46,501 bases of DNA, from positions 1 through 46,501 of the IMG/VR virus record IMGVR_UViG_3300047333_000105. One strand, 5' to 3'. A program made the position numbers and the translations under genes. Source of the DNA: a virus. Positions 1-46,501 of the stretch are shown here, piece by piece; within the stretch, counting starts at the first letter, position 1, and each line of letters begins with the position of its first letter. Below the pieces are notes generated by a model that was not told where the DNA came from, did not search any database, and saw nothing but the letters and a program-made list of their open reading frames with translations.

Positions 1-127
1 TGACCCTGACCCTGACCGTGACCGTGGCCCTGACCCTGACCGGTATTTTTGTTTAATTGGTCTCATATCAGCCTCACTTGATAACACCAAAGCTCTCGAT
101 AGCCGATGTCTGGATATAGAGGGAGTT
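1..127. repeat. Terminal overlap: bases 1-127 are an exact copy of 46375-46501, so the contig closes on itself (unit length 46374 bp)
   Basis: Compared base by base. Both copies run tgaccctgaccctgaccgtgaccgtggccc...ggatatagagggagtt. An exact 127-bp end overlap is the usual mark of a circular or circularly permuted molecule assembled with k=127, and is not necessarily a biological terminal repeat. Confidence 0.95.
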
Positions 128-2953: not shown

Positions 2954-3175
2954 ATGCTCAGGTCATCAGGTGGACTGGCTCATGTCATAGCAGGTCATCA
3001 CCATCACCATCACCATCACCATCACCATCACCATCACCATCACCATCGTCATCACCATCACCATCACCATCACCATCGTCATATCATACAAGAACAGACA
3101 GAGTACAAACAAGAGGCAAACCGAGGGCAGACTGGGCACAGGCTTGGGGTCGAGAGGGGGGTGGGGGAGGGGTAA
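2954..3175 (+). CDS. Possible histidine-rich peptide (73 aa: H17-R-H9-R-H core)
   Basis: ATG at 2954 preceded by GGAAGGG 4 nt upstream. This is the only ORF in the 1.6-kb control region with any ribosome-binding signal. The reading frame cannot be proven because the repeat is open in several frames. Confidence 0.3.
   Translation: MLRSSGGLAHVIAGHHHHHHHHHHHHHHHHHRHHHHHHHHHRHIIQEQTEYKQEANRGQTGHRLGVERGVGEG
2996..3083. repeat. (CATCAC)n hexanucleotide tandem repeat, about 14.5 units with two CGT variants
   Basis: Read directly: catcaccatcaccatcac...catcgtcatcaccat...catcgtcat. Confidence 0.95.
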
Positions 3176-3481
3176 AGTAGGGCCCTCTGAACCACGTTAT
3201 CAGTCGGGGTCATACGAGATTTCAAAATTTAGAAAAAATTGATATATCGATATTTGCCATTCTAAGGCACCCTACAGCGTCGATAGCAATAAAAGGACTA
3301 CAGATAAGGGTCTACCCCATCGATAGGCCTTCCTGGGCTTCCTAGGGCGTTTTAGAGGGTATTCAAGAAGTGGGCTCCCTCTGGTCGCCCCAATCCTCAC
3401 CAGACTCTGTCTTAAGACTCGTACACAAAGTTGAAAGAAGGTTCTCTCCCGTTCTCCCTCGCGCTAATCTTGTTAGAGAAT

Positions 3482-3556
3482 ATTGTTATAGTATATTGTT
3501 TATATAATAATTATTAAATATATTATTTTATAAATATATTATATATTATATACTAT
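3482..3556 (+). repeat. AT-rich segment sharing two blocks with 41978-42010 (ATTGTT(T)ATAGTATATTGTTTAT and ATTATATACTAT), split here by a ~40-bp pure A/T insert
   Basis: attgttatagtatattgtttat at 3482-3503 and attatatactat at 3545-3556. The same blocks are contiguous at 41978-42010. Confidence 0.8.
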
Positions 3557-3570
3557 ACCTTAATCTTTAT

Positions 3571-3599
3571 ATGATAACACAGAAACGGGTTTTTGTCAA
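3571..3599 (-). promoter_or_regulatory. Sigma70-type promoter P6, outermost promoter of the early (minus) arm
   Basis: The minus strand reads TTGACA (3599-3594), a 17-nt spacer and TATCAT (3576-3571). It faces away from P1 and fires into the AT-rich segment. Confidence 0.55.
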
Positions 3600-3697
3600 G
3601 AACTTTTTTCATAAAAATAAATAAAAAATAATTCCTTTAATAATTAAACACTTAACTCTTTGTACGAAACTTTCTTCTTTTCCATGTACGATTTCTC

Positions 3698-36892: not shown

Positions 36893-36921
36893 ATTATACC
36901 ATATTTAGTCTGACTTGTCAA
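36893..36921 (-). promoter_or_regulatory. Consensus sigma70 promoter P4 with extended -10
   Basis: The minus strand reads TTGACA, a 17-nt spacer ending in tatgg, then TATAAT. Its leader actcgtacaggttgaggagagg is shared with P2 and P3. Confidence 0.8.
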
Positions 36922-37123
36922 GGTAAATATTAATAGGTTGCTCATCTTTTTCAAGGATGCCTTCCTTTTCAAGGGCATAGGTAACTTCATCCTCGTCAAG
37001 AGGGTCTGAAAAAACCTCCGCGATTGCGATCAGACAGGTAGGACAAGGGTCCCAGTCTTTGTGTTCGTTGTTGTACGAGACTTGTTCTCCTGTGAGAACA
37101 TGAGAGCAAATGTAACACTGCAT
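36905..37123 (-). CDS. Zinc-ribbon protein (72 aa)
   Basis: CYIC...CPTC. The start overlaps the ATP-grasp stop (TGATG). Confidence 0.65.
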   Translation of the reverse strand: MQCYICSHVLTGEQVSYNNEHKDWDPCPTCLIAIAEVFSDPLDEDEVTYALEKEGILEKDEQPINIYLDKSD

Positions 37124-37959
37124 CAGATAAATCCTTTAAAGAAATTGGCATAGTCAGTGACAGTCTTGCCAGTCAGACCAGGGGCTGTGTTAATCTCTAG
37201 AGCAAGAGCTTGCCCTCCAGTTGTGACGACAACGTCGACTGCGCCAAAGTCGAGACCCGTTGCTTCCAGACATCGCAATGCCACTTTCCGAGCTGAAGGT
37301 GGTACACTAATTCCTTCTCGTTGGAAAATGAATCCGTTGTCATGGCTTCGGATACGCCAGTCAGTTGGTTCTGTTCCATGCTTTGCTACCTTCTGTTGTT
37401 CTGAGATGACTGTGAATACATAGTCAGGATCGGGATTTCCTATGACGTCGATATCTGTTTGAGGCATATACCTCTTGCCGACATGGATACGAAATTCTTT
37501 CTTCTTCTTCATATACCGTACGTAGAGAGGGGCATCGACGAGATCATCAGGAGTGTCAGCGATAACGATACCTTCCCCTGAGTGGCCGTTGAGAACCGTA
37601 CGACAGACGATTGGATAAGCTCCTGCCGGAATGTACTCCTTGTCAGTCCAGAAATCAGGAACGAGATTGTCTTCGATCTCCAGGCTGACAGTAAACTCCT
37701 TCATGAGTTGAAAGAATTTAAGCTTGTCGACTGCTTCTCTCACTTTGAGCGGACTGTTGAGAATTTTGACAGACACTCCTTCCGGTGCCGTGATGTTATG
37801 CAAAGAATGAAACTCAGAAGAACCCCAATTGATTACGACGGAGTCCTCCTTGATCTTCCACTTCGAATCTACAAGACGAAGAGCTTTGACATCAAGGGCT
37901 TCGCAGAGAGCTTTGACACTCTTGCTTCCGGTTTTGTAAGGGAGAATTTTAACGGACAT
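37123..37959 (-). CDS. ATP-grasp ligase (RimK-like)
   Basis: PIVCRTVLNGHSGEGIVI, KKEFRIHV and LDFGAVDVVV...ALEINTAPGL (the E-x-N Mg/ATP motif). Confidence 0.85.
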   Translation of the reverse strand: MSVKILPYKTGSKSVKALCEALDVKALRLVDSKWKIKEDSVVINWGSSEFHSLHNITAPEGVSVKILNSPLKVREAVDKLKFFQLMKEFTVSLEIEDNLVPDFWTDKEYIPAGAYPIVCRTVLNGHSGEGIVIADTPDDLVDAPLYVRYMKKKKEFRIHVGKRYMPQTDIDVIGNPDPDYVFTVISEQQKVAKHGTEPTDWRIRSHDNGFIFQREGISVPPSARKVALRCLEATGLDFGAVDVVVTTGGQALALEINTAPGLTGKTVTDYANFFKGFI

Positions 37960-37961
37960 GA

Positions 37962-39065
37962 TTAATCCTCGTCTGGGTCATAGTTCGACGTAGTCGGGTA
38001 TTCTTCTGAAATGTCTGGAATAGAAAACCAACCATTGGCTTGAACAGTTGCAGGAGGTTGAGCCGAAAGAGGCGGGTAGACAGGTACATTAACCAGAAGA
38101 GAATGCAACTCTGCCTCTGTCATTCCATAAGCCGAAGCTACATTTCCCAATTTCTTCTTCGGGCGACCGAAAGGATCATCCTGATTTACAACGGGGACAA
38201 AAACAGACCAGTCCCGACAGAAACAGATGTCCTGTGCCATACGGATGCCTTCGTACAGAGAGGCAGAGATTTGGTCGTCGTTCCAGTCTATACCCTCACG
38301 GACGATATCATAGGTATCTCCGAGAATATTCCGCATGAAGAAGAGAGGACCACCGTACGAGAATGAGTTGCAAACTTCCCGAGGATCGGGGAACTGCTCA
38401 GAGAACTCATAGAGACGACGATTGATAGCCACCCAGTCAAGAATAAGCTGAGGATCAGTGGCACCACGAAGGTAACGATTTTCGAGAGAACCGAACTTCG
38501 CCAGAGCTTGGATATTAAGACCTGCGTAATGGAGACCTTCGTGGAGGGTTGTATCTCCATCTTTTTGGATAAACCTCTTCAGGGTTTGTACGATATTGGG
38601 GGCGTCCTTGGCACGAAGACAGAAAAGATTACCTACGCGATGATCACCGGCCCATTCAGAGAGGATTTCTTCGAGAGCGAACCACATCGCCGTAAACGAG
38701 GCAAGACGGTTGACATTCCAGAGACCAACATTGAGATGGACGTGAACAGAAGTCCTGTTCGACTCATCCAATTCGGTTCCAAAATCCTTGAATATAGTCC
38801 ACAAGCTCTTGAGGGCTTCAGGAACTTCATCGAACAAGATAGGATTGGAGAGGACATATTCGGCGTTATCTTCGCCACGGAGAGAATGATCTTCATGATA
38901 TGACCAGTAAGGTTCGAGCTTGGGCCCACTCTTGTAGAACTTGTTGCCCTCGCATTCGATCTCCAGTCCGATATCACCGAAGACCTTCCCTTTACCCATC
39001 AGGTTTCTGATCTCTTCGCCGTACACTTTCTCTTTCAGTGTAGGTATAAAAACTGGATGAGCCAT
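37962..39065 (-). CDS. Amidoligase (GS-like COOH-NH2 ligase, Amidoligase_2-type), paralogue 1
   Basis: GLEIECEG, NRTSVHVHLN and GSLENRYLRG follow the G-x-E-x-E / S-x-H-x-H / E-x-R pattern of this family. ATG 39065 overlaps the upstream stop (TGATG). Confidence 0.6.
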   Translation of the reverse strand: MAHPVFIPTLKEKVYGEEIRNLMGKGKVFGDIGLEIECEGNKFYKSGPKLEPYWSYHEDHSLRGEDNAEYVLSNPILFDEVPEALKSLWTIFKDFGTELDESNRTSVHVHLNVGLWNVNRLASFTAMWFALEEILSEWAGDHRVGNLFCLRAKDAPNIVQTLKRFIQKDGDTTLHEGLHYAGLNIQALAKFGSLENRYLRGATDPQLILDWVAINRRLYEFSEQFPDPREVCNSFSYGGPLFFMRNILGDTYDIVREGIDWNDDQISASLYEGIRMAQDICFCRDWSVFVPVVNQDDPFGRPKKKLGNVASAYGMTEAELHSLLVNVPVYPPLSAQPPATVQANGWFSIPDISEEYPTTSNYDPDED

Positions 39066-39820
39066 CAAACAATCCTTCCAAAATATTCAGTTGCTGCAAT
39101 GACTTCAGTAAGATACTTGAAGTCGTCGCCAAGTTTCAGCAAAGTCTTGTCACATTGAGGAAAAACACCTACGACATCCCCCTTATAGGCAAGGAAGAGC
39201 ATCCCAATAGGTCCTCGAACAAGTGCCAACTTTCTGTCAAAAGCTACACCCCGGTTGGAGATTTCGGGATTGTTCAGAGCTTCGAAAGTCTCATCGATAG
39301 TAGGATAGTTACCCAAGATAGTGTCTGCCAACTCGTTTGACAAGAGTCCAACCTGACGATCTCGATAGGTATTCCCTCCGAGACAAACAGGAATCTGTGA
39401 GAGACTCTGGCTATTCAGTCCCTGCTCTGTACGACGAGTAGGGGCCCTTTCTACATAGACACACCTACCGTCGATGTTCACAAAACCGAGAGGAAATGGC
39501 CGGAACTTATTGAAATGAGGAGAATTCATCTGTTTCCTGATGACCTTCGAATGAGGTTTCATACCAAGGTATTCGTCACAAAGAGGTCCAACGGAAGGGT
39601 TATCTCCGCTGTTCTTCGAGATGCCGTCGAAAGGGGAGAAACGCTGCTCACTCACTTTGGCATCACAGAGAGGTTCCATATACACCCTAAAGATGTTGTC
39701 ACCCATGTGGTTGGCTACAGCAAGGACGTGGTAGGGGTGTCCGTCGTAGAGAATGACGGTACCCTTGATCCTCTTGTTTGCCTCAGGAAGAGACTCATAG
39801 AAGTTGGGATATTTAGCCAT
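39065..39820 (-). CDS. Uncharacterised protein (251 aa) embedded between the two amidoligase paralogues
   Basis: Intact ORF overlapping both neighbours by 1-8 nt. No motif recognised. Confidence 0.7.
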   Translation of the reverse strand: MAKYPNFYESLPEANKRIKGTVILYDGHPYHVLAVANHMGDNIFRVYMEPLCDAKVSEQRFSPFDGISKNSGDNPSVGPLCDEYLGMKPHSKVIRKQMNSPHFNKFRPFPLGFVNIDGRCVYVERAPTRRTEQGLNSQSLSQIPVCLGGNTYRDRQVGLLSNELADTILGNYPTIDETFEALNNPEISNRGVAFDRKLALVRGPIGMLFLAYKGDVVGVFPQCDKTLLKLGDDFKYLTEVIAATEYFGRIV

Positions 39821-40814
39821 GATAACCTTCCTTCACGATAGTTTTCAAAGGATAATTCCGACCGTACTCAAAATCCTGGTCGCGGCGAGAAGAGTTGATA
39901 GACTTACAGAGGAGTCTGTTGGCATCACTACCACATTTCTCCGGCAAGTAGAGAACCGACATATCCCAGATGGCTTGGTTCATTCGATCCCAGACAGCTC
40001 TACGAAGAGGTTTGTTCGTCAACCAAAAGTTGGACAGAACACGATACTCGACGCCATAGCTTTTGTATCGACATGCCCCTGCCTGGCCGTACAGGGAACG
40101 ACGGATGTTGTTCTTGTCGTTCAAAAGAGACCAGTAGCCGAGATACCAGTCGAGTTGCTTCACAAGGTCGGAGCAATGGTTGAGATGATCGATATCCTTC
40201 GAGAGATCGACATCTTGAGTCCAGCCGATATGGAGATGACCACTCGCTGTACGGACACGTTCGAGATCACCAATAGGTTTCGGGGAAGGATTCTGCTCAT
40301 TCGTCCAGCCGTTGAAGTCGGGATTACATCCAAGGACCTTAGCAGCAGGAGGGATACGTTCCCATTCCTCGATGTCATACTTGACAGAAGGTACGGCAGA
40401 AAGTTTGTAACCTTTTGGCAAGAAGGTTAGAAGACTTTTCATAACTTGGGTGATGTTGCGGTCGAAGTCTTCGAAGTTATCGACGGGATCGATGTTGAAT
40501 TCGGCGGCAGTGCCGTCAACTTGGATAGCTCCGTAGGGAACCTTGTAAGGCTCGTCCTTCGTTCCAGGCAACAGATCGTGTGCAGATACGACACGACCTT
40601 CGGTGTTGAGAACAAACAACTCTGGATCACACCCAAACGTGAATCCCGGCAGTGGTTTGATTGGAGCTTTCACGACGTAGACCTTTCTTGTAAAGAGGTT
40701 AGATATGGTTGAGAAGGGATTGGATGGCTTGAGGAAGGATAGGCAATTCAGGCATGATGAGACGATTCTGTCGGGGATCGACTGAACACTCAGGACAGAG
40801 GATGAGGTCGTCAT
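39813..40814 (-). CDS. Amidoligase-like protein, paralogue 2
   Basis: FGCDPELF, RTASGHLHIG and YGVEYRVLS align with the three motifs of paralogue 1. ATG 40814 would overlap the GATase gene by 116 nt. An alternative GTG at 40673, with AGAAAGG upstream, gives 286 aa and no overlap. Confidence 0.55.
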   Translation of the reverse strand: MTTSSSVLSVQSIPDRIVSSCLNCLSFLKPSNPFSTISNLFTRKVYVVKAPIKPLPGFTFGCDPELFVLNTEGRVVSAHDLLPGTKDEPYKVPYGAIQVDGTAAEFNIDPVDNFEDFDRNITQVMKSLLTFLPKGYKLSAVPSVKYDIEEWERIPPAAKVLGCNPDFNGWTNEQNPSPKPIGDLERVRTASGHLHIGWTQDVDLSKDIDHLNHCSDLVKQLDWYLGYWSLLNDKNNIRRSLYGQAGACRYKSYGVEYRVLSNFWLTNKPLRRAVWDRMNQAIWDMSVLYLPEKCGSDANRLLCKSINSSRRDQDFEYGRNYPLKTIVKEGYHG

Positions 40815-41862
40815 GGTTCGCTACTGTAACCCCGATAGTATCGACAGTAATATCAGCATTACACCAAGAACAACCATAACTAGCCAGCTCTGCGAACCGG
40901 TCGAGGGAGAGATGTCCTGCGAAAGGATCGTCCTTGTCCGCAACGAGGTTGATGAACTGTACCCCTGTGCTGGTGCTACCAGTCGAGCCAAGGGTTGTCG
41001 ATGAGTTCTTGTTCTGTGTACTCCCCGAGTGCCCTGTGGTGGTACCATGGTGATGAAAAGGGGTAGTCCCGGTGCTGTAGTGAGTTACAGCCGGGGTAGG
41101 CTCCTTTCCCTTGAGTTGACCTTTCTTGGCGTAGGCAAGAGGATAATCCATATCCGCCTTGTCGCGGAGCTTGTTGAGATCGAAGGTGTACAACTCGTCG
41201 ATATCGGTGGCGAAGTAGGTATACCCTTCCGCCGACTGAGCCATGTCATACTTCGACGTCGACAAACCGATTGCAGCCTGTATCATAGGCCACTCCGACG
41301 CCCACATCACCTGCTGGTGGTTTTTCGAGACTGCCGTCCAAAAAGACCGCTCCTTGTTGCGGAGGAAGTTGACGGTATTCTCGTTTTTGTCGTACCAGAC
41401 AAGGGCCCAGGCTCCTTGGAGGAGAGGGATTGTCTTGTGTACGCCAAACCGAGCGATATGGGTGAAGATAGCAAGGGAATCGACATCAAATTTTTCTCCG
41501 AGTTCGTCTTCCAACTCCATATGAGACAAGATGGAGAGAGTTCCGTTGTGGGCACCGATGATGTGATCCACTACGAAAGGATGGGCGTTGTTGGCGTTGA
41601 CCTTGCCCTTCGTCGCTGCCCGGTTGTGACCGATGAAGACAGAGCTTGCCGTACCCGAGAGGGCGGTGTCAAACTTCTTGCTGTCGAACAGGTCGAGAGG
41701 ATGACTGGCAATCTTGACGACATGGGTATCTTTCGTGGCATGTCGAACTGCCGCAAAGCCGGTCGAGTCCGTGCCTCGGAAGTAGTCATAGAGCATGAGA
41801 CGCTTCATTGTCGCCTCGTCGCGGTGTTCTAACACACCCATAAGTCCCACGAGCCCACACAT
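40699..41862 (-). CDS. Class II (Ntn) glutamine amidotransferase-like enzyme with a low-complexity linker and C-terminal Cys4 ribbon
   Basis: The N-terminus MCGLVGLMG carries the Cys2 nucleophile; FRGTDSTGFA is also present. The linker is TPFHHHGTTTGHSGSTQNKNSSTTLGSTGSTSTG and the C-terminus contains CSWC...CPEC. AAAGGA SD. Confidence 0.8.
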   Translation of the reverse strand: MCGLVGLMGVLEHRDEATMKRLMLYDYFRGTDSTGFAAVRHATKDTHVVKIASHPLDLFDSKKFDTALSGTASSVFIGHNRAATKGKVNANNAHPFVVDHIIGAHNGTLSILSHMELEDELGEKFDVDSLAIFTHIARFGVHKTIPLLQGAWALVWYDKNENTVNFLRNKERSFWTAVSKNHQQVMWASEWPMIQAAIGLSTSKYDMAQSAEGYTYFATDIDELYTFDLNKLRDKADMDYPLAYAKKGQLKGKEPTPAVTHYSTGTTPFHHHGTTTGHSGSTQNKNSSTTLGSTGSTSTGVQFINLVADKDDPFAGHLSLDRFAELASYGCSWCNADITVDTIGVTVANHDDLILCPECSVDPRQNRLIMPELPILPQAIQSLLNHI

Positions 41863-41913
41863 TATAGAATTCCTTTCAAATTCAAAAGGTTATGAAATAG
41901 TTAAAAATAAAGC

Positions 41914-41942
41914 TTGACAAAAAGCCAAAAGTGTGGTATAAT
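41914..41942 (+). promoter_or_regulatory. Consensus sigma70 promoter P2 on the plus strand, inside the minus-strand arm (orphan, antisense-facing)
   Basis: TTGACA (41914-41919), a 17-nt spacer ending in tgtgg, then TATAAT (41937-41942). Its leader atccgtacaggatgaggagagg is almost identical to those of P3 and P4. Confidence 0.75.
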
Positions 41943-41977
41943 ATCCGTACAGGATGAGGAGAGGTGATGGTAAGTTT

Positions 41978-42049
41978 ATTGTTTATAGTATATTGTTTAT
42001 TATATACTATCTAACAATAGGGCCTATCAAGATTATCTAACAATAGGGC
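41978..42049 (+). repeat. AT-rich block homologous to 3482-3556, followed by two exact 16-bp direct repeats (iteron-like)
   Basis: attgtttatagtatattgtttattatatactat (41978-42010). TATCTAACAATAGGGC occurs at 42008-42023 and 42034-42049. The whole block is bracketed by the 9-bp inverted repeat GATGGTAAG (41966-41974) / CTTACCATC (42061-42069). Confidence 0.85.
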
Positions 42050-42080
42050 GATCTGCCCACCTTACCATCTCTTGTACGAA

Positions 42081-42962
42081 TCATACTTCCTGTGTTGGGA
42101 CCTTCTCGGCTTGTTCCTTCATGAATCTCTCCATGACATACTCGGCCTTGAGACGGCGATTCTTGCCCGAGAGTTCGAGATCGGAGTTCAGTTCGACGTA
42201 GTCATAGATGAGATCAAGACACCACTTCGTGTACTCTCCGTAGCCACGGTACTCAGGATGTCCTTGTACGCCCAGACAGCATGTGTCACGGATGAAATAG
42301 GCTTCGACGTCCTGATGACCTCCAGTGGACTTCATATGGTCGTTATACCACCTGTTCTTCGATTGGTGGCCATGGGCGATGACATCCATACCCGGACCTG
42401 GAATGACCATCTGGTGGTGTACGGAAGAGACGGCATTGATATAACGCTTGTTCTTTCGGTCGAACATTCCGTGGGGTTGGTTGTGACCGTCGACGTCCTG
42501 ATAGAGCTTGAAGCCATTCATCACTGCAAGGAACTGGGCACCACGGCAGACGCCAAACATTGGGATACCGAGAGTCTTGCAGATATTGAAGAGACGGATG
42601 TCTTGGATGTCACGCTCTTCGTCGTGTACGGTCGTTGAATGAGGCATCTCTCCGTACAGGGCAGGATCGACGTCTGCACCGCCTGCGAAGACGACCAGAT
42701 CAGCTTCTTCAGGAGTCTTGGCGTTGTAACACCGGGCCCGAGAGAACATCTCGGCGAACTGTTTCTTCTCAAAAGGGGAGCCTGTGAGGTATACTGACAG
42801 CCACAGCTCCGGCATCTCCAGCACCGAGTCTTTTTGTAGGACTACTTTGTGTTGTCCTAGCAGGAGGGGTGGAGAACCATTTGGTGTAATGGTATTCGTC
42901 CCAGCATCTTTCTGCATCGACATATTCCTGATCCTTTTTTGTCTTCTGGATTGTTTTGACAT
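42081..42962 (-). CDS. Class I glutamine amidotransferase / peptidase C26 (gamma-glutamyl hydrolase, PuuD-like)
   Basis: VVFAGGADVDPALYG, GIPMFGVCRGAQFLAV (nucleophile Cys), VHHQ and GVQGHPEY (His/Glu). The likely start is ATG 42923, with AAGGA 9 nt upstream. Confidence 0.85.
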   Translation of the reverse strand: MSKQSRRQKRIRNMSMQKDAGTNTITPNGSPPLLLGQHKVVLQKDSVLEMPELWLSVYLTGSPFEKKQFAEMFSRARCYNAKTPEEADLVVFAGGADVDPALYGEMPHSTTVHDEERDIQDIRLFNICKTLGIPMFGVCRGAQFLAVMNGFKLYQDVDGHNQPHGMFDRKNKRYINAVSSVHHQMVIPGPGMDVIAHGHQSKNRWYNDHMKSTGGHQDVEAYFIRDTCCLGVQGHPEYRGYGEYTKWCLDLIYDYVELNSDLELSGKNRRLKAEYVMERFMKEQAEKVPTQEV

Positions 42963-43083
42963 CCATGTGATCCACTTCAGATAATACGACCTCCGTCATA
43001 AGGGCGAAGGCCTCGTCGTGATAGCCCCACTCCTTTAGCCCGATGGCACGATAAAGTTTGAACTCGTTGAGGGCATTTCTCAT
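42769..43083 (-). CDS. Hypothetical protein (up to 104 aa); its 3' half overlaps the C26 gene out of frame
   Basis: The N-terminal ~55 aa look protein-like (MRNALNEFKLYRAIGLKEWGYHDEAFALMTEVV...). The rest overlaps the better-supported C26 frame by at least 155 nt. Confidence 0.4.
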   Translation of the reverse strand: MRNALNEFKLYRAIGLKEWGYHDEAFALMTEVVLSEVDHMDVKTIQKTKKDQEYVDAERCWDEYHYTKWFSTPPARTTQSSPTKRLGAGDAGAVAVSIPHRLPF

Positions 43084-43095
43084 ATCCTTCTTTCC

Positions 43096-43785
43096 TTATG
43101 CCGGTTCGGTTACGGCCTTGGCTGCGAAAGGGTTGGAAGCTGCCTTGGCCTCGGCAGGGACGTGACCCTTGATCTCCGACTCGCCGTAAATCTTCGTCTT
43201 GCGGGAATGCCAGATTTCGTGAGGAGTCATCGTCGGCTCAGGAATCTTCAGCCATGCTACAGGAGGTGTGAAAGGATCAGCGACGGCTGCATTCGAGATA
43301 TTCCGAAAAAGGGCAAAGATGTGGTTCTTGTGAGGTCTCGTCTCTCCTTTGACAGGTTCTTCCGGGACAGTTTTGTCAGTGTAGACGGAATTTCCTACCG
43401 TACGAAGGAATTCGAAGCCTTCGGCCTTGAGAATTTTCAGCCACTCCTTTCCGTTCCGATCCGACATCTGACTGTCAGAAAAGACGGCAAAGAAGGTATG
43501 ATCGGGCATATCACTTGTCCCGAAAGTACCAATACGTATGAAATTCTCGAAGACTTCACGGTTGGTCTTGCCAAGATAGGCAAATTCCGACTTGCCGTTG
43601 ACAGTCACAGTCAGGGCCTGATCGTTCTTGCCGTCACGGTCGCCGTGGTAGAGTTGGACGGAGGCAGGTGCATCAGGGTCGTTCACAAAACCCTGAATGA
43701 TATCGACGGCACAACAGCCGATACCTTCACCGCCATGCTGTGAGCCGAAACGCAGGAACTCGATCTTGCTTGCAGAATATGCCAT
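43096..43785 (-). CDS. Uncharacterised protein (229 aa) with an H-x-G-x(n)-CC-x-(I/V)-x-x-I-x-GF N-terminal motif; paralogue of 44171..44596
   Basis: FGSQHGGEGIGCCAVDIIQGF. ATG 43785 overlaps the upstream stop (TGATG) and has AGGAG 9 nt upstream. Confidence 0.7.
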   Translation of the reverse strand: MAYSASKIEFLRFGSQHGGEGIGCCAVDIIQGFVNDPDAPASVQLYHGDRDGKNDQALTVTVNGKSEFAYLGKTNREVFENFIRIGTFGTSDMPDHTFFAVFSDSQMSDRNGKEWLKILKAEGFEFLRTVGNSVYTDKTVPEEPVKGETRPHKNHIFALFRNISNAAVADPFTPPVAWLKIPEPTMTPHEIWHSRKTKIYGESEIKGHVPAEAKAASNPFAAKAVTEPA

Positions 43786-44150
43786 CACTTCTTCTCCTCG
43801 TTGGTTTGCTTAACAAGCCATGCGTTGAGAGCTGCCACAGCCTTGGACGCCGTAGGTGTCTTTGCTAAGTCTTGTCCAACATCAATAGCCGCCATGGCGT
43901 AGACTGTATTCTTCGAAGGAATCACAGACGACAAAAGGTTGACAACAAGGGCGAAAGGAATCAGGAAGTATCCTACTTTACGCCAGATTCTCCAGCGCTT
44001 TTCTTCTTCTTCGTCTTCTGCCAACATGGCAATGAATGTAAGGCACCACCCTATAGAAGAGACACAACAGATACCAGAGAGAAAGTTAAGCTCCCCCTGT
44101 ACGTTTCCACAAACGTCGGCAAGATAGAGCATGAGTTTAAGATGGTTCAT
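43785..44150 (-). CDS. Integral membrane protein (121 aa, about 3 TM)
   Basis: Three hydrophobic segments. GGAGGA SD 4 nt upstream of the ATG. Confidence 0.7.
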   Translation of the reverse strand: MNHLKLMLYLADVCGNVQGELNFLSGICCVSSIGWCLTFIAMLAEDEEEEKRWRIWRKVGYFLIPFALVVNLLSSVIPSKNTVYAMAAIDVGQDLAKTPTASKAVAALNAWLVKQTNEEKK

Positions 44151-44170
44151 TTATTCCTCCATGTTTGTTG

Positions 44171-44596
44171 TTAGTCGTCAGGGTCGTAGTCGTATTCCAT
44201 GTTGAGATGATAGATACGACAGATGTTGTAGGAGTTGCTATTCCTAACCTCGTTGACCTGGAGAAAACCTCTCTCCAGAAGCCTCTTTTCGTTGACGACA
44301 ATCTGGTCCCAGTCTCCTTCATAATCACGTGCTAGGACAGCCTCTACGATGCCTCCAGGACGCTCTGCCTTGATGTAGGCAAGGAACCTGTCCAGACGAG
44401 CCTCTACGGTCTCCGCAGGGGCTGAGAGAGTGAAGAAAGAGAGATAGGACCGAACCTCTGACCCGCAGGAGTCTTCGTCGTCGAATTCTGGTTGCTCCTC
44501 CAGCTCAGGCTCCATCACCTTATGAGGATAAGACGGAAAGCCGAAGATGTGTTTGATGCCGCAGCACATACCGTTATGACAGGAAATTCTAAGCAT
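44171..44596 (-). CDS. Uncharacterised protein (141 aa) with the same CC motif; paralogue of 43096..43785
   Basis: MLRISCHNGMCCGIKHIFGF. ATG 44596 has AAGGAG 7 nt upstream (the track start 44650 lies inside the repeat element). Confidence 0.7.
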   Translation of the reverse strand: MLRISCHNGMCCGIKHIFGFPSYPHKVMEPELEEQPEFDDEDSCGSEVRSYLSFFTLSAPAETVEARLDRFLAYIKAERPGGIVEAVLARDYEGDWDQIVVNEKRLLERGFLQVNEVRNSNSYNICRIYHLNMEYDYDPDD

Positions 44597-45035
44597 AGCT
44601 CTTCTCCTTTTCCTTTTCTTGTCGATTTTGCTCCGAGCGGTGCAAAGCACCTAAGGTGCGGAGCGAGGTATACTCCAGCCAATCAGAACCGTGGATCAGT
44701 TTTGAGATATCAGGCTTCTCATGGAATTCATAGATGAAGCCATCGAGTCCGTCGATATTGACGAGATGCCGTACATAGAAGGAATGACCGGGGGCGTCAG
44801 GAATGAAGCCTTCGTAGTCATCCAGACGAGCAAGGCCGTCGTCATCCACCTGAATGACGTCACAGAGGATTGAGTAGCCATCGGGTTCGAGACGCAAGGC
44901 CGGGAACCATCCCATGTCGTACAGGAAGCCTTGTACTTGGACTTGACGACCTGTGTCATGGATGAAATTCATCCAGTGCTGGCGCTCTTCTCGTTTTCGG
45001 AGGGTGCCGTAGGCGAAGACGTTGAGGATTGCCAT
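44589..45035 (-). CDS. AIG2-like gamma-glutamyl cyclotransferase (GGCT/GGACT family)
   Basis: FAYGTLRKRE, GFLYDMGWFPAL and LARLDDYEGF match the YGTL...LD.YE pattern. The last ~25 codons are supplied by repeat copy C. Confidence 0.8.
   Translation of the reverse strand: MAILNVFAYGTLRKREERQHWMNFIHDTGRQVQVQGFLYDMGWFPALRLEPDGYSILCDVIQVDDDGLARLDDYEGFIPDAPGHSFYVRHLVNIDGLDGFIYEFHEKPDISKLIHGSDWLEYTSLRTLGALHRSEQNRQEKEKEKSYA
44629..44668 (-). repeat. Copy C of the ~40-bp structured repeat (reverse orientation), inside the 3' end of the GGCT ORF
   Basis: tgctccgagcggtgcaaagcacctaaggtgcggagcgagg. It has one deletion and one mismatch relative to copy D. Confidence 0.9.
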
Positions 45036-45650: not shown

Positions 45651-45691
45651 TGCTCCTGAGCGGTGCAAAGCACCTAAGGTGCGGAGCGAAG
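45651..45691 (-). repeat. Copy D of the ~40-bp structured repeat (reverse orientation), in the 5' leader of 45230..45628
   Basis: tgctcctgagcggtgcaaagcacctaaggtgcggagcgaag is the exact reverse complement of the consensus. Confidence 0.9.
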
Positions 45692-45730
45692 TTAAAGTAA
45701 GAGGGGAGGGTGGCACAGCCACTATCTAAT

Positions 45731-45773
45731 AGAAGACAAAAGAAAGGGCGAGAAAGGAACCCCCTTCTCACCC
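45731..45773 (-). terminator. Terminator-like hairpin plus U-tract beginning about 4 nt after the predicted P3 start site
   Basis: The minus strand reads GGGUGAGAA-ggggguuccu-UUCUCGCCC (9 bp including one G-U), followed by UUUCUUUUGUCUUC. Confidence 0.5.
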
Positions 45774-45782
45774 TGTACGGAT

Positions 45783-45811
45783 ATTATACCATACTTTTGT
45801 AAATTTGTCAA
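45783..45811 (-). promoter_or_regulatory. Consensus sigma70 promoter P3 with extended -10
   Basis: The minus strand reads TTGACA, a 17-nt spacer ending in tatgg, then TATAAT, followed by atccgtacagg as in P2. Confidence 0.8.
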
Positions 45812-45824
45812 GCAAAAAGTGAAA

Positions 45825-46115
45825 CTATTTAGCTTGATCGAGAACTTTTCTCAACCTAGTCTGCTCTTCGAGGGCAAAGTTGTGCCAGGTTATACCGTGG
45901 GAGTGAGTAGGGAAACGAAAGCAATCCTTGCCGATACCACCTTTCATAGTCTCGATGACGTTGATGGCGGTCTTGAGGGCGTTTTCAAGAGAGCTGACCC
46001 GCGAGATAGCTGCTGCCATAAGGTTGACAGACTGTTGGAGGGCATCTTTGTCAAATGCAGGTTCTTGGGTACGACAGTTGCCGTTACAGCACTTGTCAGG
46101 TGTACAGAGGCACAT
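45825..46115 (-). CDS. Hypothetical protein with a Cys-rich N-terminus (96 aa)
   Basis: MCLCTPDKCCNGNC... GGAGAA SD 6 nt upstream of the ATG. Confidence 0.65.
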   Translation of the reverse strand: MCLCTPDKCCNGNCRTQEPAFDKDALQQSVNLMAAAISRVSSLENALKTAINVIETMKGGIGKDCFRFPTHSHGITWHNFALEEQTRLRKVLDQAK

Positions 46116-46290: not shown

Positions 46291-46440
46291 CTAATTTGAC
46301 CCTGACCCTGACCATGACCATGACCGTGACCCTGACCCTGACCCTGACCATGACCATGACCGTGACCCTGACCATGACCCTGACCCTGACCGTGACCGTG
46401 GCCCTGACCCTGACCGGTATTTTTGTTTAATTGGTCTCAT
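46291..46440 (-). CDS. Possible repeat peptide (49 aa): MRPIKQKYR followed by (S-G/R/W)n, encoded by the hexamer tract
   Basis: ATG 46440 (the same position as 66 in the first copy of the overlap) has GAGG 5 nt upstream; TAG at 46291-46293. The frame is uncertain: see the finding on the GGTCAN tract. Confidence 0.35.
   Translation of the reverse strand: MRPIKQKYRSGSGPRSRSGSGSWSGSRSWSWSGSGSGSRSWSWSGSGSN
46297..46416. repeat. (TGACCN)20 hexanucleotide tandem repeat, reading GGTCAN on the minus strand
   Basis: Read directly. There are 20 units, and all variation is at unit position 6 (G/C/T/A) apart from one change at position 3. The tract continues into the terminal overlap (bases 1-42). Confidence 0.95.
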
Positions 46441-46501
46441 ATCAGCCTCACTTGATAACACCAAAGCTCTCGATAGCCGATGTCTGGATATAGAGGGAGT
46501 T
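46375..46501. repeat. Second copy of the 127-bp terminal overlap (identical to 1-127)
   Basis: Exact identity checked base by base. Confidence 0.95.

Follow-up and report, generated by a model that had tools for sequence, protein, structure and literature searches.

A gap of 218 nt between two minus-strand phage genes raises the question of why a consensus promoter should sit there facing against both of them. The window (the whole stretch of DNA analyzed, 46,501 nt) has ends that overlap exactly over 127 nt, and thus corresponds to a phage genome of 46,374 nt that is either circularly assembled or terminally redundant. The gap (41863-42080) lies between a class-II glutamine amidotransferase (GATase_6, starting MCGLVG; 40699-41862, minus) and a Peptidase_C26/class-I GATase (42081-42962, minus; stop codon 42081-42083), both identified by Pfam scan and referred to below as GATase and C26. 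Their gene cluster also holds a phiEco32-type COOH-NH2 ligase, an Amidoligase_2 protein, a RimK-like ATP-grasp enzyme and a gamma-glutamyl cyclotransferase (GGACT). The window further encodes a T7-like primase-helicase and a family-A polymerase (PolA), and its ORF list contains no 800-900-aa ORF able to encode a phage RNA polymerase. Comparison of the locus with 50,697 phage records by blastn gave no match among cultured phages, an exact-protein look-up of the window C26 returned no record, and protein searches found distant relatives only (PolA 34% to Pelagibacter phages, C26 36-39% to Pseudomonas phages). A promoter 20-mer had three matches in GTDB genomes, which were judged unrelated by source organism alone and offered no clue to the host. 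A preliminary description of this DNA had read the gap as either a candidate replication origin or the source of an antisense or structured RNA.

The promoter itself was found as described there. It is of the sigma-70 type (TTGACA-N17-TGgTATAAT, 41914-41942, plus) and matches the consensus at 12 of 12 positions plus the TG, with the -35 hexamer at 41914-41919, a 17-nt spacer, and an extended -10 element at 41934-41942. An A-rich stretch, AAATAGTTAAAAATAAAG, precedes it. Near-consensus promoters (at most one mismatch) number six in the window, against 0.17 expected by chance, and the gap promoter is one of four 12/12 matches. Transcription would be expected to start near 41949, within a purine-rich, Shine-Dalgarno-like leader, ATCCGTACAGGATGAGGAGAGG (41944-41965, plus), that would provide the 5' arm of a closing stem in the RNA. 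This leader matches those of the promoters at 36921(-) and 45811(-) at 19 of 22 positions, bearing out the earlier remark that it is nearly identical to the leaders of two gene promoters.

The likeness to the promoter at 45811 is not confined to the leader. The complete module, consisting of the A-rich upstream part, -35 element, spacer, extended -10 element and leader (41895-41964, plus), is complementary to 45761-45830 over 70 nt at 79% identity (inverted repeat I1), and 45761-45830 is the first promoter of the minus-strand early block. At this partner locus (45745-45830, minus) the 5' UTR of the first early gene, downstream of the early promoter, holds a 13-bp hairpin with a U-run (z = -4.2). 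The same inverted pair is present in four other contigs, with copies 2.9-3.8 kb apart: 61 nt at 87% in L009, 51 nt at 86% in L098, 37 nt at 97% in L006, and 64 nt at 100% in L092, where by our reading of the alignment the homology resumes past a ~15-nt insertion into the 5' UTR. The pair is thus found in four lineages, over 37-70 nt at 79-100% identity, and always brackets the first early gene block, from the GGACT gene to C26. Over 51 nt, the gap module of the window matches the promoter at 45811 at 43 positions, the promoter at 36921 at 38, the L092 module at 38, and a module at a different locus in L105 at 49. The higher identity within than between genomes, together with the 49/51 match to the L105 module, suggests that paralogous promoter modules have been duplicated and subject to gene conversion. 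No inversion isomers of the block between the inverted promoters were seen among contigs carrying both.

To what extent the remainder of the gap is shared can be judged from the relatives. The window-type element recurs with few substitutions in L001, L093/L096/L098/L107/L114 and L094 (C26 84-93% identical). In L002 and L003 the plus-strand promoter is 90-96% identical and the flanking DNA ~84-85% identical overall (BLAST); the transcribed body is 42-58% identical to that of the window, lacks the ATG and the 16-bp repeats described below as well as, in L002, part of the AT block, and forms a different stem around a similar AU-rich loop. L092 (C26 60% identical) has the same backward consensus promoter with the leader ATCTGTACAGGG, followed by a body that consists of a ~55-nt GC-rich hairpin and the U-run ACATACTTTTTCTT, the latter directly adjoining the C26 stop codon; nothing of the AT block or 16-bp repeats is left in L092, which retains the promoter. 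Every relative having the spacer keeps a backward promoter at the C26/GATase junction. In seven sequences from three lineages (window, L001, L002, L003, L092, L093 and L094), the -35, TG and -10 elements are unchanged and spacer positions 4-8 are variable, which is the pattern expected for a promoter under selection. By this comparison, what is conserved across relatives is the promoter and the first ~20 transcribed bases only. A degenerate pattern, CACAT-N(15-45)-promoter, gave 120 matches in IMG/VR, none of them beside a GATase start, and proved too unspecific.

The body downstream of the leader is bracketed by a 9-bp inverted repeat, GATGGTAAG (41966-41974, plus) and CTTACCATC (42061-42069, plus), whose arms pair with each other in the minimum-free-energy fold. 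The repeat is present as had been described, and taken alone it is marginal, with ~0.09 expected per 218 nt by our estimate; in L001, L093 and L094 its first pair can no longer form (G to A). Between the arms, 41975-42045 is 79% A+T and includes an AU-rich imperfect palindrome, predicted hairpin 1 (41977-42020, plus; z = -3.1 and -3.8 in two folds), which holds the AT block shared with 3486-3507. It is followed by a small hairpin, GGGC-GATCT-GCCC (42046-42058, plus), the sole body element recognizably common to L002/L003, where it reads GGGC-CT-GCCC. The distal pyrimidine-rich arm, CTTACCATCTCTTGTACGA (42061-42079, plus), predicted to pair with the leader, has the genome-wide motif TGTACGA at its end, immediately ahead of the C26 stop.

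Two exact direct repeats of 16 bp were likewise confirmed. The sequence TATCTAACAATAGGGC occurs exactly twice in the window, at 42008-42023 and 42034-42049 (plus), 26 nt from start to start. Two exact copies in a 218-nt gap are far beyond chance by our estimate, and the pair looks like a 1.6-copy tandem duplication. Conservation of these supposed iterons ends with the window-type lineage, the repeats being missing from L002, L003 and L092. The AT block had been described as ~35 bp long and repeated elsewhere in the same promoter-then-AT-rich arrangement. A second copy does exist at 3486-3522 (unstranded, repeat family D3), downstream of the minus promoter at 3571-3599, but it is identical only over the first 18 nt and 76% identical over 37 nt; by our reading the match extends to ~22/23 nt with one indel. 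The AT core lies on the same strand at both loci and the promoters 3599(-) and 41914(+) are opposed, so the blocks are inverted relative to their promoters and the layout is not a repeated module, contrary to the earlier suggestion. Pairing between the transcripts of 41914 and 3599 (~22 nt complementary) was considered and dropped; no contig of a relative spans the two loci, and the L007 counterpart has the motif in the other orientation.

We then compared the C26/GATase junction across relatives. In a distant set of 34 IMG/VR loci (C26 40-53% identical to the window C26), the two genes abut or overlap in ~24, and they abut in ~29 of 39 more distant relatives overall. They also abut in L090, L091 and L115-L119, and in the closer relatives P0004 (66%), P0005 (71%), P0006 (56%) and P0009 (57%). 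Small sense-strand inserts occupy the junction in 6 or 7 of the 34 distant loci, and P0007 (60%) has a 106-aa minus-strand gene there. Three further loci of the 34 (L013, L027 and L042) carry a backward-facing ORF of 112-142 aa exactly at the junction, and a 153-aa homologue of it adjoins the element in L001. This ORF matches the phage endonuclease families phrog_3322 (3e-29) and phrog_1035 (endonuclease VII), while its match to Pfam HNH_5 falls below the curated cut-off. All four of these HNH cassettes (L042, L001, L013 and L027) have a near-consensus sigma-70 promoter of their own, and in L001 the HNH cassette and the orphan promoter module stand side by side. In L027 and L042 the HNH stop codon is succeeded by ACCACACATGTTA, the relic of an ancestral overlap of C26 stop and GATase start, indicating that the cassette entered the extreme 5' end of GATase. 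Judged from these loci, the spacer of the window is an insertion at the junction, and the junction repeatedly receives backward-facing HNH homing-endonuclease cassettes too. Since cassette-free relatives have C26 and GATase abutting or overlapping, any regulatory role of the insertion is dispensable.

To gain insight into the possible product of the promoter, its transcript was folded together with those of related modules. RNAs from early-class promoters all begin ACAGG(R)UGAG(R)AG(R)GG, and in every predicted fold the leader is paired with a downstream pyrimidine run. The enclosed loop ranges from 4 nt at the promoter at 45811, which yields the 13-bp hairpin and U-run noted above, through ~25 nt in L095 and L096 and ~45 nt in L092 and L099, to ~100 nt in the window (z = -3.8), L002 (z = -2.1) and L003 (z = -3.6). 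By our reading, the pair at leader position 6 is A-U in the window type and G-C in L002/L003, and RNAalifold reported four doubly changed pairs in hairpin 1; this covariation is weak evidence, as there are only two effective lineages and the alignment is not structure-aware. Within the window-type lineage, substitutions break predicted pairs, namely three in hairpin 1 in L094 and the first pair of the 9-bp stem in L001, L093 and L094, suggesting that selection on RNA structure is weak or absent. The antisense or structured RNA of the preliminary description is supported in part: the promoter is conserved and all variants fold with the leader-pyrimidine stem, but the fine structure shows no purifying selection. 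The gap promoter probably fires a structured non-coding RNA of ~125-170 nt, antisense to the operon.

No canonical terminator follows the body in the window, where a site at 42094-42110 is weak, and terminator-like sites in the region are no commoner than chance. In L092 the hairpin with UUUUUCUU directly abuts the C26 stop codon. A search of the sense strand for a terminator inside the cassette gave weak 4-6-bp stems only (GCTT...AAGC; TTGACA-N4-TGTCAA in relatives) with U-rich tails, which were unconvincing. Rfam 15 had no match in the window at the gathering score and, at E <= 10, chance-level matches only over 41850-42150, and ARAGORN found no tRNA or tmRNA in the window. An antisense ORF of 188 codons (42072-42638) was also considered as the gene served by the promoter; it is without Pfam match, its frame is open for 114-260 codons in relatives with stops that differ in place, and it was treated as a by-product of the C26 frame.

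Weighing these observations, we favor, with a probability of roughly 0.55, the reading that the gap holds an accessory cassette of promoter and stem-loop: the sigma-70 early promoter and leader of the phage, duplicated in inverted orientation and inserted at the Peptidase_C26/GATase junction. In the proposed pathway, the consensus promoter would be bound by host RNA polymerase, followed by initiation near 41949 and folding of the purine-rich leader onto the pyrimidine run at 42061-42075, closing a predicted multi-hairpin, AU-rich non-coding RNA of ~125 nt. Lacking a canonical terminator, this RNA may run 30-90 nt or more into the 3' end of C26 as antisense. Because the gap promoter converges on transcription from 45811, one would expect head-on interference as well as duplex formation between the RNA and the C26-GATase intercistronic mRNA. 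The outcome would be an abundant, short, structured non-coding RNA together with convergent transcription against the early operon. In evolution, the cassette would behave like the promoter-early stem-loop (PeSL) cassettes of T4-type phages, whose strong, repeated promoters and stem-loops move among intergenic sites by copying, conversion and shuffling. The RNA and the convergent transcription may be selected or merely tolerated.

A neutral promoter copy maintained by gene conversion would in fact look identical to a selected cassette. According to this explanation, the early promoter was duplicated in inverted orientation and the copies stay alike through conversion, with neither RNA nor transcription selected. 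It accommodates an identity that is greater within a genome (up to 100% over 64 nt in L092) than between genomes (38/51), a body that drifts freely, and relatives that manage without the element. Yet carrying a strong convergent promoter within an operon should come at a cost, and this one is kept in three lineages, with substitutions that spare exactly the RNA-polymerase contact positions; we regard the neutral copy as unlikely. Free-standing HNH homing-endonuclease cassettes occur in phages, an example being T4 mobE, and the gap might also be the decayed shell of one, its ORF lost and its promoter and untranslated parts left with no present function. The element shares with the HNH cassettes of L013, L027, L042 and L001 the intergenic landing site, the orientation, the kind of promoter each cassette has of its own, and a patchy presence among relatives. 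The GATase-proximal flank of the L027 cassette, GCAGATAAATAATTCCTTTCATT, is identical in the promoter-only L092 and largely common to L094, and the L027/L042 relic marks entry at the 5' end of GATase. Such a shell is nevertheless improbable, given that no endonuclease ORF was found in the window by tblastn (best E = 0.74) and that local alignment of the element bodies with the four HNH cassettes on both strands was no better than with shuffles (z < 3 throughout). The HNH promoters, moreover, have another leader class, GTGTATAGA/GTAGTATAAC, which resembles the window promoters 3698(+) and 32582(-) and is unlike the early-class leader of the orphan; the two kinds of element coexist in L001, and a perfect consensus promoter is not expected to outlast neutral decay. 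We also consider it quite doubtful that the conserved unit is the inverted early-promoter pair as such, spanning the first 3-4 kb early block, gene-converted, and acting as a convergent-transcription timer or insulator for the early operon or, given the G clusters of its leaders, as an R-loop-prone pair of initiation sites for the T7-type replisome, with the C26/GATase junction selected as a fixed right-hand boundary.

Two further explanations draw on the transcribed body. As the preliminary description noted, a Shine-Dalgarno sequence and an ATG open a 15-codon ORF (41967-42014, plus) that reads MVSLLFIVYCLLYTI*, and a hydrophobic 15-residue peptide could be imagined to be translated from the leader, with GAGGAG located 5 nt upstream of the ATG. 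The ORF is intact in the window, L001, L093/L096 and L094, but is missing from L002, L003 and L092, and the substitutions in L094 are 4/4 non-synonymous (V to A, C to R, Y to H and I to T). The inverted repeat also yields a mirror ATGGTAAG start on the other strand, which makes the start codon a by-product of the palindrome. The mini-ORF bears no sign of peptide-level selection; it was judged non-coding, and we give a peptide gene very little credence. A transcription-activated origin, in which the strong promoter and the AT-rich segment give an R-loop or primer for the T7-type primase-helicase and PolA, has known parallels: the primary origin of T7 consists of promoters 1.1A and 1.1B plus an AT-rich segment, and T4 oriF and oriG are R-loop origins. 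In its favor, the gap has a promoter followed by an AT-rich stretch (79% A+T), the two replication enzymes are present, and no ORF is of the size of a phage RNA polymerase. In this promoter class, the first 25 nt of the leader contain G clusters (GGG, GGGGG), and G clusters in an early transcript favor R-loops. The cumulative GC skew, a weak indicator of origins in phages, peaks at 2.1 kb and reaches a broad minimum at ~36-39.5 kb, 2.4-6 kb away from the element. To the left of the element (40.0-41.9 kb) the curve rises, and over 42-45.5 kb it is flat, the opposite of an origin minimum; it thus has no local minimum or turning point at the element. The promoter, unlike those of the T7 origin, is of the host sigma-70 type rather than for a phage RNA polymerase, and it faces against the genes. 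The spacer is absent from most relatives, and the AT-rich stretch and repeats are not conserved, the stretch being shortened in L002 and absent in L092, the repeats missing from L092, and both differing in L002/L003. Only two iteron copies are present, compared with the usual three or more in an iteron-type origin, and a Pfam scan of ~16 minus-strand window ORFs revealed no replication-initiator domain. As a candidate origin, the larger AT-rich region that lies between divergent promoters at ~3.48-3.66 kb has at least an equal claim. The proposal of a replication origin consequently found no support in the comparison, and we consider it quite improbable; as far as the relatives indicate, the mini-ORF, AT block and 16-bp repeats are lineage-specific filler, neither functional iterons nor a gene.

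The promoter/stem-loop cassette that we favor can be compared with several described systems. Backward sigma-70 promoters are familiar from short cis-antisense phage RNAs, namely lambda OOP RNA opposite the 3' end of cII and P22 sar RNA in the arc-ant spacer. The gap likewise has such a promoter between co-oriented genes, with a predicted short structured RNA complementary to the operon mRNA. However, both OOP and sar have a defined intrinsic terminator as well as a defined target to overlap (the cII 3' end and the ant ribosome-binding site), whereas the window type is without a canonical terminator and the overlap common to all variants is the inserted spacer only. PeSLs would be the closest described analogue. 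These cassettes of T4-type phages (Arbiol et al. 2010, PMC2839356; Comeau et al. 2014, PMC4122927) are strong sigma-70 promoters with stem-loops, repeated in the genome and mediating modular shuffling (PMC2839356). They were defined in the hyperplastic regions of T4-type myoviruses, where they are oriented with the genes and where promoter and terminator activity was experimentally shown (PMC2839356). The gap cassette resembles them in that its sigma-70 early promoter comes close to the consensus, recurs in the genome, is AT-rich upstream and has a stem-loop attached, and in that the copies lie at intergenic sites beside variable ORFs of unknown function or mobile genes. Also as in PeSLs, the copies within a genome are alike and mark where close relatives differ by insertion, deletion or replacement: an HNH gene beside the element in L001, an ORF swap with an extra module in L099, and patchy presence at the junction. 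The differences are that the phage has a ~46-kb genome and a T7-type replisome and is not T4-type, that there are ~6 copies rather than ~50, that the stem-loop lies in the transcribed leader and not in the promoter region, and that the gap copy is oriented opposite to the genes around it, as the inverted counterpart of the early promoter. A further trait of PeSLs is the formation of recombination products such as mini-circles. With another type of phage, a stem in the transcript and an antisense orientation, the gap cassette is better viewed as an analogue of PeSLs than as a member.

If this reading holds, repeated promoter/stem-loop cassettes extend beyond T4-type myoviruses: their influence also reaches small uncultured phages that have a T7-type replisome, and such a cassette can be inserted backwards within an operon where homing endonucleases have a hotspot. 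Around the amidoligase/GATase early block, the inverted pair of early promoters offers a testable architecture for convergent transcription in a phage early operon. For annotation, a promoter, an AT-rich block and direct repeats in a phage gap are insufficient to call an origin; here it was the comparison of relatives that separated the conserved promoter and leader from lineage-specific filler.

A second module facing against the grain was found in L099, between the stop codon of a 91-aa ORF and the start of the primase-helicase gene. The 91-aa ORF, of unknown function, replaces a 69-aa ORF of the window. At all 29 of 29 positions the backward promoter of this module agrees with the early promoter of L095; L095 is a contig from a sister sample and may belong to the same phage as L099.

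Across the whole window, the most over-represented hexamer was GTACGA, with 83 sites observed against 22.6 expected (z = 12.7). TGTACGA was present in 39 copies against 5.7 expected, and CGTACAGG in 14 against 1.2. Sites are found on both strands and in coding and non-coding DNA alike, as exemplified in the hexamer count by positions 3661, 3685, 36884 and 42073 on the plus strand and 32589 and 44917 on the minus strand. Their 5' flank is T/C-rich (YTYTGTACGA). Among the contigs of metagenomic relatives, 5-6-fold enrichment of the motif was observed in the close relatives L006+L009, L090 and L091, while none was seen in the distant ones. Inverted copies of the motif were also noted at both ends of the orphan element, the backward plus-strand promoter and transcribed body in the gap between the GATase and Peptidase_C26 genes (41863-42080), which starts with CCGTACAGG and ends with CTTGTACGA. 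GTACGA is possibly a site of modification, primase action, nicking or regulator binding, among other candidate meanings.

The early/middle gene block on the minus strand (37123-45035) encodes GGACT, Peptidase_C26, a class-II GATase, a phiEco32-type COOH-NH2 ligase, Amidoligase_2 and a RimK-like ATP-grasp enzyme. Phage amidoligase sets of this kind have been proposed to synthesise a small peptide-like or amino-acid modification, or to attach it. For the Peptidase_C26 gene, more than 600 homologues were found, and many of those listed lie on contigs of 45-50 kb. The N-terminal Cys of the GATase is catalytic. In three relatives, L027 (~1360), L092 (~4018) and L094 (~1185), the start of the GATase gene appears to read ATC-TGC-GG, an Ile codon followed by Cys, rather than ATG-TGT-GG, and in all three it comes after the same AAAGGAATTATTT ribosome-binding region. 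Two explanations suggest themselves: the GATase has a non-ATG start, or a piece was brought in with the endonuclease cassette, the backward-facing HNH gene present at the Peptidase_C26/GATase junction in some relatives.

Many promoters of this phage group contain the palindrome TTGACA-N4-TGTCAA, comprising the -35 hexamer and spacer sequence, as in the relatives L099 (3519-3534), L095 (1744), L001 (~3965, minus strand) and L013. Read on the opposite strand, it gives a weak hairpin with a U-rich tail after it. A dimeric regulator may use the palindrome as its operator, or the palindrome may be a weak terminator for opposite-strand transcription.

In the region 45745-45811 (minus strand), the main early promoter leads directly, at +3 to +32, into a 13-bp GC-rich hairpin and UUUCUUUUG, which together have the appearance of a terminator or attenuator in the early-gene 5' UTR. 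The hairpin is kept in the relatives L095 and L096, with loops that vary, and its distance to the ribosome-binding site of the first early gene (MKKITVNK) is ~25 nt in L096-type relatives vs ~100 nt in the window. It could act as a 5' stabiliser, an attenuator or an antitermination element. Two sites in a single lineage (L096, also L098, L107 and L114) carry an inserted 20-nt mini-hairpin, ACGCAAGGAGCTTGCTCCGT (GGAG-CUUG-CUCC). In L096 it occupies 58-77 and ~3400-3420 on the minus strand; one copy lies within the early-promoter hairpin, and the other directly follows CTTGTACG, where the orphan element ends. This sequence looks like a tiny mobile palindrome.

Four copies of a further repeat, GAGCGGTGCAAAGCACCTAAGGTGCGGAGCGA, were found in the window with 90-97% identity. 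Each is 32-35 nt long with overlapping palindromes (GGTGC-AAA-GCACC-TAA-GGTGC). The copies at 418-449 and 544-575 share one orientation, and those at 44635-44669 and 45658-45692 are inverted relative to them. One of the four sits in the 5' UTR of the first early gene, and the repeat is also found in L009.

Downstream of the minus-strand promoter at 3571-3599 lies a stretch of ~390 nt without a convincing ORF (3180-3570, minus strand). Some of its blocks, GGGGCGACC...GGGAGCC among them, are conserved in the relatives L007 and L105, where the counterpart of the promoter belongs fully to the early class. The stretch could give rise to a long non-coding RNA; alternatively, it could be a region for packaging, or a genome-end region, beside the terminase genes.

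The ends of the window overlap exactly over 127 nt (1-127 = 46375-46501), reflecting either a circular-assembly artefact, 127 being a widely used upper limit of k-mer size, or a short terminal repeat. Two hexanucleotide repeat tracts were also noted. The (CATCAC)n tract (2986-3080, plus strand) encodes ~25 histidines and lies inside an ORF of 92 aa; the C-terminus of this ORF is conserved in L007. The (GGTCAG/GGTCAT/GGTCAC)n tract (46297-46427 / 1-59, minus strand) crosses the assembly junction, and ORFs spanning 46,501/1 are left out of the ORF listing; depending on the frame, the tract encodes Gly-Gln/Gly-His or Ser-Gly/Ser-Trp repeats.
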